From Christensenellaceae bacterium Phil1 (GTDB lineage Bacteria > Bacillota > Clostridia > Christensenellales > CAG-138): a stretch of 64,000 nt of DNA. Shown here in pieces: positions 16,324-48,115 of this stretch; within the stretch, counting starts at the first letter, position 1; every line of letters begins with the position of its first letter. The position numbers were made by a program, and so were the translations under genes. Location: contig MSGS01000044.1 in assembly GCA_001940855.1 (NCBI GenBank), forward strand, positions 20,215-84,214, read 5' to 3'. The notes under the pieces are model-generated. The model saw only the letters and a list, made by a program, of their open reading frames with translations, was not told the DNA's origin and ran no database searches.

Positions 16324-16713
16324 TCAGCGTGCCGCCGCCCGCGTTACCATTGCGCACAGCATACCCGAAAGCAGGCCTATGCCCATATCGCTGAGCATTG
16401 CCATATTCAGCGCAAAGCTGCCGCTTAATATCGAAAACACGGCATAGGCGAGCATTGCGTAAATAAGCCCAGCCGCCCCGCCGAAAAGCCATGCGCGGCT
16501 GCCGCAGCCCCTTTGCGCAAAGAAGCCCGCCGCCGCTGCGCCTATAACCTTTATTGCCGCGTTAACAATCGGTATCAACTCCACACCGACCACCTGTTTC
16601 CACATCAGCGCCGCAAAAATAACTATCAGCGCAACGCTCACTACGCATCCTATAAACGCCGCCTTCAGCAGCGTAAGCACAGCGGGCGCGTTTGCCGCCT
16701 TTCCCCTTGCCAT
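16324..16713 (-). CDS. Small integral membrane protein (about 4 TM), function unknown
   Basis: 129 aa, almost entirely hydrophobic helices rich in Ala/Gly/Ile. Sits directly upstream of recJ on the same strand. Confidence 0.6.
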   Translation of the reverse strand: MARGKAANAPAVLTLLKAAFIGCVVSVALIVIFAALMWKQVVGVELIPIVNAAIKVIGAAAAGFFAQRGCGSRAWLFGGAAGLIYAMLAYAVFSILSGSFALNMAMLSDMGIGLLSGMLCAMVTRAAAR

Positions 16714-16810
16714 ATAATGTCACCTCCCAAGCCTATGTGCTTATCATTATTCACTTTTATGCGCCCATATGATAAGATATAGCAAATCGCTTACAAAGGA
16801 GACTGCACAT

Positions 16811-17329
16811 ATGGATTTTCTGGAACTGGCTGCAAAGCGTTATTCCGTAAGGAAGTTTAAGGAAGAGAAGGTTCGCCGGGAGGATCTTGATAAAATACTG
16901 AAGGCCGGCATGCTCGCCCCCACGGCGCATAACGACCAGCCGCAGCGCATTTTGGTCATAAACAGAGACGAAGCGCTTGAAAAGCTGAAAAAATGCACGG
17001 CGTGCCATTTCAACGCGCCCACGGCCCTGCTTATTTGCAGCGACAAGGACGCCTGCTGGACGCGCAAGTACGACGGCAAAAAGAGTTACGACATAGATGC
17101 GGCAATAGTAACCACGCATATGATGCTGGAGGCTGCAAGCATAGGCGTGGGCACGACATGGGTAATGCATTTCCGCCCGCAGGTTGTGCGCGAGGAATTC
17201 GCCCTGCCCGATAATTACGAAGCCTCCGCCATGCTTATGATGGGCTATCCCGCACCCGATGCCGAGCCTTACCCCGGCCACTTTGAGTTTAAGGATGAAA
17301 AAGAGCTTGTTTTTTATAATGAGTTTTGA
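16811..17329 (+). CDS. Nitroreductase family protein
   Basis: 172 aa from ATG 16811 (AAAGGAG upstream). MDFLELAAKRYSVRKF ... APTAHNDQPQRI are typical FMN nitroreductase segments. Confidence 0.88.
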   Translation: MDFLELAAKRYSVRKFKEEKVRREDLDKILKAGMLAPTAHNDQPQRILVINRDEALEKLKKCTACHFNAPTALLICSDKDACWTRKYDGKKSYDIDAAIVTTHMMLEAASIGVGTTWVMHFRPQVVREEFALPDNYEASAMLMMGYPAPDAEPYPGHFEFKDEKELVFYNEF

Positions 17330-17332
17330 GCA

Positions 17333-17362
17333 TTGACACTCGATATAATTCGACATTATAAT
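17333..17362 (+). promoter_or_regulatory. Near-consensus sigma-A promoter of the small-peptide transcript
   Basis: TTGACA (17333-17338), 18-nt spacer, TATAAT (17357-17362). Predicted start near 17369. Confidence 0.65.
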
Positions 17363-17368
17363 AAAGCT

Positions 17369-17621
17369 GGTGCCTGCCAAGCACGGTAGACGGTCGGCCA
17401 CACTCCTGCCCTATTTTTAGAGGAAAGGAGGTGACCCGAAGATGAGTTGGGGAGAGCTTTTTGCTTTTCTAATGTTCGTCTTGGAGCTTCTCAAGTTCTT
17501 CTGGCGAATTCTATGCTCCGTTATAGGATTCATGTCCAAAAAGAGAAGTAACCGTCACTCCGCCAAGTAACGGTTATTCCTAATTACCAAATCTCTTGGC
17601 CGACCGTCACCGGTAGGCACC
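17369..17621 (+). repeat. Inverted-repeat arms (17369-17400 and 17597-17621) that would close the small-peptide mRNA in a 25-bp 5'-3' helix
   Basis: GGTGCCTGCC pairs with GGTAGGCACC (10 bp, one G.U). GGTAGACGGTCGGCCA pairs with TGGCCGACCGTCACC (15 bp, one bulged A). Confidence 0.8.
17442..17570 (+). CDS. 42-aa hydrophobic peptide with a basic tail; candidate type I toxin
   Basis: Below the track cutoff. AAAGGAGG lies 9 nt upstream of ATG 17442. Translation: MSWGELFAFLMFVLELLKFFWRILCSVIGFMSKKRSNRHSAK. An anti-SD CACTCCT (17401-17407) faces the SD. Confidence 0.5.
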   Translation: MSWGELFAFLMFVLELLKFFWRILCSVIGFMSKKRSNRHSAK

Positions 17622-17627
17622 CTTTGT
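17537..17627 (-). ncRNA. Candidate ~90-nt antisense RNA covering the 3' UTR and last codons of the peptide gene (copy 1 of a two-member family)
   Basis: Minus-strand promoter TTGCAT (17662-17657), 17 nt, TATAAT (17639-17634). Hairpin TAACCGT/ACGGTTA (17549-17576) followed on the minus strand by CTTCTCTTTTT. Ends are approximate. Confidence 0.5.
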
Positions 17628-17665
17628 ATATTCATTATATCGCAAGCGTTGCATTTATGCAACGT

Positions 17666-18121
17666 TTATATTTCCCGCCTCTCTGCCTTTAACCCCAGCG
17701 CCGTGGCCTGCTTTTCGGGATAGCGCGAATAGTAGCTTATGCCGCGCGCGGCGTATTCCCCGCGGTGCTTGCCGTAATGCCTGCACCATATAAAGCTTGG
17801 CGCGCCTACCATGATAAGATACAGCGGCCCCAGCAGCAGCGATTGGAGCGTATGCCCGTATTCGTGCGATGCTATCTCCCGCGCACGCTCGCGGCTCGTA
17901 TCCTTATGCGTGCCGACGAATATGAACATGCCAAGCGACACGCAGCCAAGCCAACGCATATATTTTGGCACAGAGTCGATATCGTATTCCGTAAGCACGG
18001 CGCAGCGATAAAAGCCGCGCTTCTGATTGCCCAACAGCAGCATTGCAATAAGCCCCAGCAGGCTTTGCACCACGCCCCATGTGCATTGAATGAATATGTA
18101 GGCTATGCGTTTGAGTTTCAT
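17666..18121 (-). CDS. Membrane protein with an HExxH (HEYGH) motif; putative membrane zincin, function unknown
   Basis: 151 aa. N-terminal TM helices, SHEYGHTLQS followed by another hydrophobic segment. No family assignment I can make with confidence. Confidence 0.6.
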   Translation of the reverse strand: MKLKRIAYIFIQCTWGVVQSLLGLIAMLLLGNQKRGFYRCAVLTEYDIDSVPKYMRWLGCVSLGMFIFVGTHKDTSRERAREIASHEYGHTLQSLLLGPLYLIMVGAPSFIWCRHYGKHRGEYAARGISYYSRYPEKQATALGLKAERREI

Positions 18122-18133
18122 ATTTTGCCGTTA

Positions 18134-18514
18134 TCAGTATTGCGCCGCGCAGGAGAGCAGCACCGCCGCGCAGCCTATGGCGTATACTGCCGTATGCGCG
18201 TACCACCATTTGCCGTACTCCGCCTTGCCGAACTGTATCATGCTCCGCACTATCGCTATGAGCGCGGGTGACATGCACAAAAGCCCCGCTATTATAACCA
18301 TAGCCATGCCGTGGTCATGCGTTGACACCTTCAAAAACAGATGGCATGTAAGCAGTATGCCGACTTCGGCAAAAAGCAATGCTATATGCTTAACGTAAGG
18401 AGGTACATCCATAAGTATCGCTTTATAAGTCTGCGGTTGATGTATCTGCCGCCTTACGCCAATGGCTATCCACATAAGAACAAGGTCACATAGAAGCGGA
18501 ATTAAAAATACCAT
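18134..18514 (-). CDS. Hypothetical integral membrane protein
   Basis: 126 aa from ATG 18514 (GGGAGGA upstream; track start 18559 is an extension). About four hydrophobic helices. A 12-nt gap separates it from the next gene. Confidence 0.55.
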   Translation of the reverse strand: MVFLIPLLCDLVLMWIAIGVRRQIHQPQTYKAILMDVPPYVKHIALLFAEVGILLTCHLFLKVSTHDHGMAMVIIAGLLCMSPALIAIVRSMIQFGKAEYGKWWYAHTAVYAIGCAAVLLSCAAQY

Positions 18515-18671
18515 GGTTATCCTCCCTGAAATGCTTATTTGATATACAGAGCATACCATATATTACCGCTTAACGCAACAATTTGCCTGTTTTTCTTGGT
18601 ATACGGCTTGAGTTTATGCCGGTTATATGGTATTGTGGCAATATTGAATCAAGTTTTATAGGGGGCATCAC

Positions 18672-19049
18672 ATGAAAAAGCTTATAAACGCACTTTCGCA
18701 GAAAAAGGAAGTTTTCGCAACGGATGTCGTTTCCGTGCAGTTTGCGCTGCTGACGCTCCCCTACATATGCTTATCGGCATCTTTCCCTGACGACAGCCGT
18801 TGGCCGCGCTGGGTGAGAGTCGGTGCACTTGCAATCCTGCTCGTGCTTCAGCTTATCCCTATAGTCGTTTTGCTGCGCGATGCGTTCGGCAAATGGCCCG
18901 AATATCGCACGCCCGAGGAAACGAAGCAATATGAGTTGCGCCAGCGCGCGGCATGGAAGCAGATAGTGTGGCATACGCTTTCAAGCGTTATTCTGATAGT
19001 AATCATATATTGCCAGTTTAACGTTCACTCTCCGTTCTTCGGTTTCTGA
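18672..19049 (+). CDS. Hypothetical integral membrane protein
   Basis: 125 aa with three hydrophobic segments. Candidate promoter TTGAGT-17-TATTGT and RBS-like GGGGG upstream. Confidence 0.5.
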   Translation: MKKLINALSQKKEVFATDVVSVQFALLTLPYICLSASFPDDSRWPRWVRVGALAILLVLQLIPIVVLLRDAFGKWPEYRTPEETKQYELRQRAAWKQIVWHTLSSVILIVIIYCQFNVHSPFFGF

Positions 19050-19137: not shown

Positions 19138-19809
19138 TTATTCCAAAGCACTGTTATGCCCCAGAACCATACCCTTCCATGCTCCTTTGATTTTTGCTAC
19201 ATAAACATGTATATTTCCCCTATATGTTTCCTTCTCTCCTGTTACCACAAACTCGATATTTACCTCTTTGCACGCTGTAATTTCTTCCTCGTCAATGTTA
19301 AGTCCATCAAGGAGTTCCTCTATCCTAAGCCTCAAACGGTCTACCCCGTATAGCCTCTTGAGTCGTAGGCTTTTAATACTCGTATCTTTTATGTCTATCG
19401 CCTTCATGCTGACCGCATAGGCCCCAAACATATCTTCAAAGTCTTTTCGGATTCTTTTATCAATAAATTTATAATAATCATTAAGTGATAAAAACTTCTC
19501 GCCAAACTCTTTGTTAAGCTGTTCAAGCAGCTCATTATCGTTTTTGCAACCATAGCGATACCTCAAAAATTCATTCTTGCCGCCCGGGCTCAGATTAAAG
19601 GCTTCCCTGCACGACGTTTCGCCCGTAACTCCTTTTAAGTACCGTATCGCCACACATTGTGGGCCGTTCCATTCTATTATAAGAAAGGCTGTTATAATCA
19701 TGGCTATTGCGACGGCCGCCGCAAGCATAAGCTTTTTATTTTTCGTGGTTTTTACCTGTTCATTTGCATTGTTTGCGGCTTCATGATGGCTGTTGTTTAT
19801 CTGCTCCAT
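19138..19809 (-). CDS. Hypothetical single-pass membrane protein (AT-rich cassette gene)
   Basis: 223 aa. N-terminal polar stretch, one TM (LMLAAAVAIAMIITAFLII), then a Lys/Glu/Asp-rich soluble domain. Own promoter TTGTCA-17-TATACT and GGGGGG RBS. Visibly lower GC than its neighbours. Confidence 0.6.
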   Translation of the reverse strand: MEQINNSHHEAANNANEQVKTTKNKKLMLAAAVAIAMIITAFLIIEWNGPQCVAIRYLKGVTGETSCREAFNLSPGGKNEFLRYRYGCKNDNELLEQLNKEFGEKFLSLNDYYKFIDKRIRKDFEDMFGAYAVSMKAIDIKDTSIKSLRLKRLYGVDRLRLRIEELLDGLNIDEEEITACKEVNIEFVVTGEKETYRGNIHVYVAKIKGAWKGMVLGHNSALE

Positions 19810-31142: not shown

Positions 31143-31183
31143 AAAAGCAAAAACTATCGACACGGCAAATGCCGCATCGATAG
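31143..31183 (-). terminator. Expression-platform terminator of the lysine riboswitch
   Basis: Minus strand: CTATCGATGCGGCA-TT-TGCCGTGTCGATAG (14 bp including 2 G.U), followed by TTTTTGCTTTT. Its 5' arm is the 3' strand of aptamer helix P1. Confidence 0.75.
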
Positions 31184-31350
31184 CTCTTCATCCAATAAAC
31201 AAGATGACAGTCGCAGCGCGCTGGCCGCTGCGCCCAAGCATGGCGCCGGGATGAGCAGCCGTGCTTTCGGCGGAAGTCACATTCGCCTGCGTCATCGGGC
31301 CTCCCGCCCTTATCATTCGCATGGTTACCTTAGCCTCCGCGCCTCTATCG
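31178..31350 (-). promoter_or_regulatory. Lysine riboswitch (L-box) aptamer
   Basis: Minus strand: CGATAGAGGCGCGGAGG ... GCCGAAAG ... CTGTCA ... GGATGAAGAGCTATCG. It carries the conserved AGAGGCGC, GCCGAA(A/G)G, CUGUCA and GAGAGCU-like boxes in the canonical order, with P1 CGATAG/CTATCG. Confidence 0.85.
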
Positions 31351-31374
31351 TTTCGATATTCAATTAACGAATAT

Positions 31375-39202: not shown

Positions 39203-39251
39203 AATAACGTAAGAAAAATCATCATACGGAATGCTGTAAGGGAGTGCTTTG

Positions 39252-39301
39252 CGCGCGGGCAGAAACCAGGGCTTACGCCTTGTCAGCCGAGCGTTTTTTT
39301 T
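39252..39301 (+). terminator. Terminator-like element inside the ssnA leader (candidate attenuator)
   Basis: CGCGCGG (39252-39258) can pair with CCGAGCG (39287-39293), enclosing a GGCttacGCC mini-hairpin. T8 (39294-39301) follows immediately, 44 nt before the ssnA ATG. Confidence 0.4.
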
Positions 39302-47351: not shown

Positions 47352-47473
47352 CGTTAGCTACCGCCTTTCATTGTTTGGGTTAATTGTACAACATAAATCT
47401 ATTCTGAGCAATACTGTTTACATTATTCATCTTTTGGGTTACGATTAGTACATAATTCATGCGGAGGTACACA

Positions 47474-47893
47474 ATGTTCAAGGCGGTTTGGAGCATAGGC
47501 AGGGACGGTTTTGACAGAATAGAGGCCCTTAGGCGCGCGGCGGGCGCATGCCCGCAATGCATAAGCGACGGCAAAGATGCCTACGCCGGTCATGTTTACG
47601 TTTGCGAAGAAACAGGCGAACCCATAGCCGCGGGGCGTATGTATCCCGACGGCGACGCGCTTATTATAGACCGCATTGCGGTAATGCCGCAGTACGATGC
47701 AATGCCCTATGCGGAGCTTGTGCTGAGGATGCTGCTTTTTAAGGCGCAGGAGCTGCCGCAGCGGGAAATACGCATAAACTGCGAAGAAAAACGCTTTGCA
47801 TTGGTGCGGCGCTTCGGCTTCGCGCAGAGCGATGCGCACACCTTCACATGCAGCCGCAACGCGATAGTATGGGACAGCGAGTGCAGGCATTAA
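47474..47893 (+). CDS. GNAT-like small acyltransferase-fold protein (degenerate motif A)
   Basis: 139 aa from ATG 47474 (GGAGG lies 6 nt upstream, inside the track extension). IIDRIAVMPQYDAMPYAELVLRMLLFKA resembles a GNAT beta4-alpha3 segment but lacks the canonical Q/RxxGxG. Confidence 0.55.
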   Translation: MFKAVWSIGRDGFDRIEALRRAAGACPQCISDGKDAYAGHVYVCEETGEPIAAGRMYPDGDALIIDRIAVMPQYDAMPYAELVLRMLLFKAQELPQREIRINCEEKRFALVRRFGFAQSDAHTFTCSRNAIVWDSECRH

Positions 47894-47974
47894 AAAAGTA
47901 ACCGCTAAAAGGCAAAGCAGCGGTTACTCCTTATAACTTCTCTTTGACCGGCCGTCACCGGCAGGTGGTTTTCT
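47892..47974 (-). ncRNA. Candidate ~83-nt small RNA, orphan paralogue of the antisense RNA at 17537-17627
   Basis: Minus-strand promoter TTGAAA (48009-48004), 17 nt, TATAAT (47986-47981). 9-bp hairpin GTAACCGCT/AGCGGTTAC (47898-47927), followed on the minus strand by T6. It aligns with copy 1 over about 90 nt, including the identical core CCGTCACCGG. There is no minus-strand CDS it could terminate. Confidence 0.55.
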
Positions 47975-48115
47975 GTATTTATTATATGCTGCCCGCCGCG
48001 CTTTTTCAAGGCCGATATTCATTTATTTTTAGGTTTATATTCTACCATAAGCCAGCCTTTTATATAATTACAAAAATGGGCAAAAGCATGTCGTTTTTTA
48101 TAAGTCTCGATTATA

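Follow-up and report, generated by a model that had tools for sequence, protein, structure and literature searches.

Between positions 17333 and 17672 of a 64,000-nucleotide stretch of Christensenellaceae bacterium Phil1 DNA (contig MSGS01000044.1; the whole stretch is referred to as the window), an initial annotation had placed an unannotated type I toxin-antitoxin-like locus, in which the mRNA of a small membrane peptide is closed by pairing of its two ends and is faced by a convergent antisense RNA. We compared this locus, hereafter module A, with its counterparts in other genomes and metagenomes; its features are collected in Table 1. The promoter of the peptide mRNA is as claimed, and the open reading frame (ORF) encodes the 42-amino acid (aa) product that had been stated, MSWGELFAFLMFVLELLKFFWRILCSVIGFMSKKRSNRHSAK. 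The Shine-Dalgarno sequence (SD), GGAGG, lies at 17427–17431, with the ATG 10 nt further on. The locus was unannotated only in a restricted sense: on 1000 or more contigs, gene callers had already predicted precisely this 42-aa product, but labelled it just ‘hypothetical protein’. In identical form, the peptide is found in 6407 index blocks of public assemblies, and of the contig records that came up in later searches, two or more are titled ‘human gut metagenome’.

Module A is always flanked by RecJ, a DUF3792 gene and a nitroreductase gene on one side and by a 151-aa membrane protein on the other, and at the same site a sister lineage encodes a peptide (P0006) that is 81% identical to the A peptide. 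For selection and helix statistics we used 19 orthologous loci from these two lineages (main lineage, A; sister lineage, A′). The ORF is intact in all 19, with no indel and no stop, and comparison of A with the sister lineage gave a ratio of non-synonymous to synonymous change (pN/pS) of 0.30 (9 synonymous and 11 non-synonymous changes, over 24.7 and 101 sites, respectively; Fisher p = 0.005). By this comparison, the reading frame is under purifying selection. The pattern that the initial annotation had singled out as speaking against its own proposal, conserved RNA arms around an unconserved frame, was thus not what we found. One variant of the A peptide (P0005; L002, 3001–3129) carries L10P, V13F, F19C and R22L, which puts a proline within the hydrophobic helix; this may be a toxin allele undergoing decay or attenuation.

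Table 1. Coordinates of predicted features in the window (SD, Shine-Dalgarno sequence; MFE, minimum free energy; sRNA, small RNA; SL1, stem-loop 1; R1, sRNA covariance model)
Feature	Position	Strand	Remarks
Peptide mRNA promoter, TTGACA-18-TATAAT	17333..17362	+	12/12 match; predicted start ~17369
Closing helix, 5′ strand (P1-like)	17369..17400	+	10 bp, 6-nt bulge, 3 bp, bulged A, 12 bp
SD-sequestering hairpin	17400..17433	+	anti-SD CUCCU 17403-17407, SD AGGAGG 17426-17431; MFE fold
Peptide ORF, putative toxin, 42 aa	17442..17570	+	one hydrophobic helix plus basic tail, net charge +5
Antisense sRNA, ~90 nt, putative antitoxin	17537..17627	-	SL1 17618..17599, single-stranded linker, terminator stem 17576..17549, U-run
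Closing helix, 3′ strand	17597..17621	+	invariant in 19 loci; covaries with 5′ strand across module types
Candidate conserved peptide-mRNA terminator	17599..17635	+	predicted; local hairpin GCC.GACCG-UCAC-CGGU.AGGC, then U-rich run
Antisense RNA promoter, TTGCAT-17-TATAAT	17634..17662 (read 17662..17634)	-	boxes conserved
Palindrome plus T-run	17644..17672 (palindrome 17644-17667)	+	lineage-specific
Copy C, orphan type-C antisense sRNA	47885..48010	-	found by sensitive blastn; promoter TTGAAA-17-TATAAT, 11/12; R1 91.4 bits

On the minus strand, the promoter and terminator claimed for an antisense unit are both present. The predicted small RNA (sRNA) starts at ~17627, ~6 nt past the 3′ strand of the closing helix, and ends in a 12-bp stem followed by CTTCTCTTTT. 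It has full complementarity to the last ~11 codons of the ORF, to the linker in the 3′ untranslated region (UTR) and to the 3′ strand of the closing helix, and it folds with z = −3.1. Both promoters of module A, sense and antisense, have kept their hexamers and spacer lengths relative to the sister lineage, with diverged spacer sequences. Among A, A′ and the paralogous copies B and C described below, the antisense −10 box never varies and the −35 box occurs as TTGCAT, TTGCAA or TTGAAA; the spacer is constant in its length of 17 nt but not in its sequence. Copies A, B and C share the same series of elements, from the −35 box and 17-nt spacer through ATATAAT, a first stem-loop (SL1), a variable linker and a terminator hairpin with its U-run. 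SL1 contains a pair that reads A-U, G.U or G-C and an outer pair that changes from G-C to A-U, and the terminator stem shows a compensatory U-A to C-G change. A covariance model of the sRNA (R1) scored 101.9 bits at A and 48–95 bits on paralogues; over the window it found only A and copy C. These conserved boxes, covarying stems and paralogues indicate that the ~90-nt antisense RNA is a real, independently conserved gene family.

It was through the sRNA, and not through the peptide, that the wider family was reached. A word-indexed protein search with the A peptide returned orthologues at 90–100% identity and nothing else, an exhaustive HMMER search of 1.84 billion representatives added only the sister peptide P0006 and one spurious repeat protein (P0007), and a scan of GTDB genomes matched a single species, so that the A peptide by itself looked species-restricted. 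Copy B consists of the antisense unit alone (promoter, body and terminator; 72% identical) within a 200-bp insert of one strain (L010, 1779–1925), and no complete B-type module was found. Bordering this insert is a duplicate of the 3′ end of the 150/151-aa gene. Copy C, in the window itself, sits directly past the stop codon of a 144-aa GNAT-like gene (47459–47893, plus strand) with its toxin half missing. In six contigs with the same flanks (L024, L028, L029, L030, L032 and L035), this site holds a complete module, made up of a TTGACA-18-TATAAT promoter, 5′ arm, AAGGAGG, a 35-aa ORF (MVTWALLFACGSFIVGLLRLLLAILEFVMKLQKRK), 3′ arm and sRNA-C, whereas in nine contigs like the window a deletion of ~225 bp has left the sRNA alone. 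The deletion of the toxin half turns the stop codon of the GNAT gene from TGA to TAA. Contigs sharing these flanks are probably strains of one species. At copy C we also looked for a 5′ arm that might serve the GNAT mRNA, with a negative result. The closing helix is confined to full modules.

The remaining module types came from further afield. In another organism (L033), a type D module encodes a 42-aa peptide, MISWSELFSFVAIIISLVRLFITILGLIHKSAKTRSNRPRQR, which is a clear homologue of the A peptide, and the same contig carries an orphan, copy E, in which only the last ~11 toxin codons are left. The full C modules, the type D module and copy E were returned by a scan of metagenome contigs with a pattern that excluded the exact A, B and C types. 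A profile of the A, A′, C and D peptides then gave type F, with C-like toxins, at three more chromosomal sites, each with a cognate sRNA: after gdh, after PNPase (once beside an insertion sequence, IS) and in the interval from an M20 peptidase gene to FTHFS. Modules occupy at least five unrelated chromosomal sites. At the PNPase site of L037, the IS (1129–2315; helix-turn-helix (HTH) and rve transposase) lies immediately upstream of the F module, and the orthologous site of L041 has the module without the IS.

The orphans bear on what the unit of this family is. Three independent sRNAs lack a toxin half: B (L010), C (window) and E (L033). If the ~90-nt sRNAs were the main unit, acting as trans regulators or as 3′-end antisense/terminator cassettes, the A ORF would be a passenger. 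We give this little credence. It would account for orphans that retain promoter, stems and terminator without a peptide gene and that lie opposite the 3′ ends of ordinary genes (the 144-aa GNAT-like gene and the 150-aa membrane protein gene), and it accords with the predicted pairing of the non-cognate sRNA-B and sRNA-C with A mRNA, at ~−90 kcal/mol versus −31 ± 5 kcal/mol for shuffles. However, remnants of the toxin 3′ codons persist in E (AKTRSNRPRLR) and in B (SNRRGRK), each up to the stop codon, and where the flanks are the same, other contigs have an entire module at the C site, from which we conclude that the orphans are deletion products of full modules. In those full modules, moreover, the ORF, SD and 5′ arm are conserved.

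The peptides of all types, 42 aa in D as in A and 35 aa in C and F, align as a single family with the pattern M-x-W...F...IL...K followed by a basic tail. The best 19-residue Kyte-Doolittle window scores 1.92 in A and 1.9–2.7 over all peptides, the net charge of the tail ranges from +3 to +6, and pN/pS for the C and F toxins is 0.12–0.37. The conserved stem of the antisense terminator, AGTAACCG (window 17544–17578), codes for Ser-Asn-Arg in the A and D tails and provides the TAA stop in C and F. Ahead of this stem, the F loci (L036–L041, ~2590–2610) have a poly-A run that varies from 4 to 7 A and gives frameshifted tails (P0010, P0013 and P0014). The toxin promoter arrangement of module A recurs as TTGACA/TTGCAA-18-TATAAT in modules C, D and F. 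Within the 18-nt spacer of every toxin promoter, a motif TTCGACA(T/C) is conserved (window 17349–17356; L028, L033, L036–L041), immediately 5′ of the −10 box or immediately 3′ of the −35 box; this motif may represent an operator, or be left over from a duplication.

The initial annotation had described a 25-bp helix between the 5′ end of the mRNA and its 3′ UTR. The duplex energy of the two arms (17369–17400 and 17597–17621) is −47.4 kcal/mol, and the minimum free energy (MFE) fold of 17369–17675 is closed by this same helix at −120.6 kcal/mol, compared with −79 ± 5.5 kcal/mol for shuffled sequences (z = −7.6; none of 100 shuffles was equal). Over the orthologous loci, the helix is 100% paired, with 22 of 24 pairs invariant and the other two changed on one side only with pairing kept (G.U to A-U and C-G to U.G). 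RNAalifold, supplied with no structure, recovered the same helix as 22 long-range pairs, and the complete C and D mRNAs also fold closed from end to end (z = −5.5 and −9.5, respectively). The 3′ strand is the complement of the antisense SL1 as well, so the mRNA 5′ end and the antitoxin have a common target.

Comparison across module types rested on an alignment of A, A′, C and D, in which 33 pairs, those of the closing helix and of the hairpin at the ORF end, were evaluated against 500 shuffles. Helix 2 (15 pairs) is 100% paired across the four types, and five of the 33 pairs changed on both sides. Three of the observed values (percentage paired, covariation score and number of cells with both sides changed) were reached by none of the 500 shuffles; 65 of the shuffles reached the fourth, the count of pairs changed on both sides. 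When the 3′ partners were slid by 1–3 columns, pairing fell from 94.5% to 19–53%. Since MAFFT misaligned helix 1 of F, pairs of this type were tabulated by script. With F included, helix-1 position 3 changes from U-A to C-G, helix-1 position 8 reads G.U, A-U or G-C and varies even inside F, helix-2 position 7 reads C-G, U.G or U-A, and helix-2 position 10 changes from C-G to U-A; F also adds a G-C to A-U swap. These comparisons indicate that the closing helix, as well as being present and closing the MFE fold, has been maintained, by wobble and compensatory substitutions, in five diverged types of module (A, A′, C, D and F).

Inverted repeats of ~25 bp around a unit of ~250 bp, present in several copies and at several sites and in one case adjoining an IS (L037), might bring to mind a non-functional repeat resembling a miniature inverted-repeat transposable element (MITE), whose repeats mimic a helix and whose ORF and promoters arose by chance. 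This is extremely improbable, as the arms keep their pairing by G.U and compensatory swaps and not by sequence identity, the ORF has a pN/pS below 1, and the promoter hexamers are kept around diverged spacers. In addition, there are no target-site duplications or transposase-end features, and we found two copies in the 64 kb of the window and none in viral contigs.

A second structural claim concerned the SD. In the MFE fold, CUCCU at 17403–17407 is paired with AGGAG at 17426–17430, as the initial annotation had suggested. This hairpin is 97.6% paired over the 19 loci, with three compatible one-sided changes, and a hairpin sequestering the SD follows right after the 5′ arm in every mRNA type folded whole (A, C and D). 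RNAalifold also paired the SD (GGAGGU, 17427–17432) of A and C modules with a conserved GCUUCU inside the ORF at ~17494–17499 (A8 columns 72–77 and 132–137); the D counterpart is UCUUGU, in which two of the six pairs with the SD are broken. According to this model, the in-ORF GCUUCU may be a second, downstream anti-SD, comparable to the successive anti-SD elements of aapA1.

The claim that a palindrome followed by a T-run terminates the peptide mRNA fared less well. The palindrome at 17644–17667 is present, but it is destroyed in the sister lineage, weakened in four main-lineage variants and 77% paired overall, from which we conclude that the proposed terminator is not a conserved part of the unit. 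Instead, the 3′ strand of the closing helix with its U-run may itself act as the terminator. A local fold contains a candidate hairpin at 17599..17635 that could not form together with the closing helix. The corresponding hairpin and U-run were flagged as terminator-like in C and F and left unflagged in A and D.

The initial annotation had recognised no known family, and our searches agree. Scanning 16500–18500 with Rfam 15 gave chance matches only, even at E ≤ 10, and at gathering score the whole window contains only a Lysine riboswitch (31173–31355, minus strand; 75.1 bits) and an ssnA RNA motif (39224–39271, plus strand; 50.8 bits) and no antitoxin family. The A peptide matched nothing in Pfam, NCBIfam or PHROGs. 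Pfam Hol_Tox (PF16935), of which we take BsrE and BsrH to be members, was hit by 6 of 14 peptides, all of them C or F; the best of these (E = 0.0017, 18.6 bits) is under the gathering score of 23.3, and A and D peptides were unmatched. NCBIfam ComI was likewise sub-threshold for C/F peptides (E = 0.019), and no peptide matched HOK_GEF in Pfam. String searches of the literature for the peptide sequences returned nothing. We also considered a link to mobile elements and rejected it: blastn against phage and plasmid records gave no match, and scanning viral contigs with a pattern of SL1 plus terminator found none. We therefore regard the family as new and its design as already known; by sequence, kinship to the Bacillus toxin family is unproven.

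That design is best compared with type I systems of Bacillus. In bsrG mRNA, nt 1–35 pair with nt 232–262 to form helix P1 and the SD is double-stranded in the stem-loop SL1 (PMC3834814); the antitoxin SR4 pairs with the 3′ half of P1, leaving nt 1–33 of the mRNA single-stranded in the complex (PMC3834814), after which the duplex is broken down by RNase III (PMC3834814, PMC6562991). The bsrG-like toxins have 29–59 aa and one transmembrane helix, and their mRNAs are ~255–296 nt long (PMC3834814, PMC6562991). The arrangement of P1, an SD in the first stem-loop and a convergent antitoxin directed at the 3′ half of P1 and the ORF end is that of bsrG/SR4 and bsrE/SR5 (also bsrH/as-bsrH and txpA/RatA) in B. 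subtilis, and the predicted folds of A, C and D have the same order of elements: a P1-like helix, an SD hairpin and an antitoxin against the 3′ strand and ORF end. By analogy, bsrG/SR4 and bsrE/SR5 are the closest known counterparts of the present family. There are clear differences, however. Our predicted antitoxin has ~90 nt compared with 163–222 nt in Bacillus; the bsrG/bsrE antitoxin overlaps a separate terminator, SL4, whereas we found no conserved SL4-like hairpin after the helix; the modules lie at core chromosomal sites and not on prophages; and the host is a gut Clostridia-type organism with ~55% GC. Nucleotide homology to the Bacillus systems is undetectable, with no Rfam match, and peptide similarity is sub-threshold and limited to C/F.

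Other families share parts of this layout. The initial annotation had likened the closed mRNA to hok-type toxin mRNAs. A 5′-3′ long-distance pairing keeps the full-length toxin mRNA inert in hok/Sok and aapA1/IsoA1 and an anti-SD blocks translation (PMC8594479, PMC3834814). Long-distance pairing and an anti-SD are therefore common to the present modules, hok/Sok (E. coli plasmid R1) and aapA1/IsoA1 (Helicobacter pylori), but in those Gram-negative families, which have no sequence relation to ours, it is the 5′ region that the antisense RNA binds, and the mRNA becomes active through processing at its 3′ end. The present antisense RNA instead lies over the 3′ end of its mRNA and not the 5′ leader; bsrG/SR4 is the nearer model. 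An antisense RNA on the 3′ side that overlaps the ORF is the Gram-positive type I pattern (PMC8594479), which the present layout fits, and SD sequestration and 5′-3′ interaction are features by which T1TAdb recognises toxin mRNAs (PMC8594479). The RNAs of the par system (fst/RNAII) of E. faecalis pAD1 are convergent too, its ribosome-binding site is sequestered in a 5′ stem-loop, and its toxin is a membrane peptide of 33 aa (PMC7472228, PMC3834814); these traits resemble ours, whereas the shared bidirectional terminator of par and its interaction mainly through 5′ direct repeats outside the overlap were not seen here. C. difficile modules such as CD2517.1/RCd8 and CD0956.2/RCd10 have convergent overlapping genes and formerly unannotated toxins that are hydrophobic in their N-terminal part and end in a Lys-rich tail (PMC6563280), and C. 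difficile is so far the only source of experimentally validated type I systems in Clostridia (PMC6563280). By description only, our modules can be likened to these in their Clostridia host, convergent genes and hydrophobic plus basic toxins; the C. difficile modules lie on prophages or beside CRISPR arrays and have SigB promoters, whereas ours have no match among phage records.

Module A carries the generic features of a type I system, namely a hydrophobic ORF of fewer than 60 aa, an antisense gene with its own promoter and terminator, and cis elements that would block translation, and the type I reading survived the comparative tests run on the frame, the helix, the SD hairpin and the antisense RNA. 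We consider it likely that the gap contains a chromosomal type I toxin-antitoxin module of an undescribed family with a bsrG/SR4-like RNA layout. The sense mRNA, with a region of ~260 nt behind a strong promoter, would have its ends paired and be stable and translationally silent. The sRNA would nucleate on the unpaired linker at ~17579–17591, which is single-stranded in both the mRNA and the sRNA fold, and would displace the mRNA 5′ arm from the closing helix, since the predicted cognate sRNA-A/mRNA duplex has −188.7 kcal/mol versus −47.4 kcal/mol for the helix. RNase III could then cut the ~90-bp duplex, by which the mRNA would lose its 3′ end together with the stop codon, and its liberated 5′ end would be open to decay by a 5′-exonuclease of the RNase J type. 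For bsrG/SR4 of B. subtilis, this route is established (PMC3834814; reviewed in PMC6562991). Any peptide made would insert in the membrane and be harmful, which would explain the repeated deletion of the toxin half with the sRNA kept. The C site is polymorphic, full or deleted, among metagenome contigs with the same flanks, a behaviour typical of toxin-antitoxin modules.

With the same RNA layout, the peptide might still be a benign small membrane protein, such as a regulator or stress peptide, under antisense control. The purifying selection on its frame, the position of the module among housekeeping genes of the chromosomal core, at the same place in two lineages, and the lack of matches in phage, plasmid and viral collections would all suit such a protein. 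We nevertheless regard it as unlikely. The peptide half was lost at no fewer than three loci where the sRNA was kept, silencing is double (closing helix and SD hairpin) behind a consensus promoter, several diverged copies lie at unrelated sites, and one transmembrane helix with a basic tail is a known kind of type I toxin (PMC6563280, PMC8309996).

Several points weigh against a toxin-antitoxin module at this locus. For every member, toxicity, transcription and the RNase step are predictions from sequence; we infer toxicity from the type of peptide, the double translational lock behind a strong promoter and the three toxin-half deletions that spared the sRNA. A pN/pS below 1 means that the peptide is useful to something and says nothing of toxicity. 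We found no conserved canonical terminator for the peptide mRNA in A, and the antisense −35 box of A is weak, matching at 3 of 6 positions, so that it was missed by the promoter scanner, which detects the antisense promoters of D and C. Part of the covariation of the arms might stem from inverted repeats having been homogenised in sequence, although the many G.U states favour selection on RNA over homogenisation at the DNA level. Some of the frameshifted F tails may be homopolymer errors, given that some contigs look like long-read assemblies. Finally, all members come from few related gut lineages, and the number of independent evolutionary events is correspondingly small.

Within the toxin-antitoxin reading, we also entertain a more elaborate possibility, doubtful as it stands, of a three-way RNA switch that would differ from bsrG-type systems in a 3′ strand that first terminates and then locks, in competition for one site and in cross-neutralisation by orphans. 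The 3′ strand would fold first as the intrinsic terminator of the mRNA and then re-pair with the 5′ end to form the lock. The 5′ domain of the antitoxin would be a near copy of the mRNA 5′ end, both competing for a single site, and orphan sRNAs such as copy C would remain under selection for cross-neutralising paralogous toxin mRNAs, as an anti-addiction network of a core gut commensal.

Beside module A, small membrane or unknown proteins lie in a row (17666–18121, minus strand; 18134–18559, minus strand; 18672–19049, plus strand; 19138–19809, minus strand) and belong to no Pfam or NCBIfam family. The 151-aa protein adjacent to the module contains an HEYGH motif. Downstream of the module, gene content depends on the strain; L009 and L013 have a 217-aa gene and an HTH gene instead.

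To a specialist, the design of this system will be unsurprising; the value of the finding lies in a family supported by covariation in an abundant gut commensal, in the polymorphism of one site between full and toxin-deleted forms and in the orphan antitoxins. New here is a complete family comprising five or more module types, plus three orphan antitoxins; the species in which it occurs turns up in thousands of human-gut metagenomes. Because the peptides and the RNAs both diverge quickly, homology searches miss new families of this kind; here the structures of mRNA and sRNA were defined by covariation, free of experiment, and the covariance model and peptide profile can be used to annotate gut Firmicutes. 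The P1-helix design of bsrG/bsrE appears to reach well beyond Bacillus prophages. The full and toxin-deleted forms of one site, probably in strains of one species, offer a natural experiment on the purpose of chromosomal type I modules.

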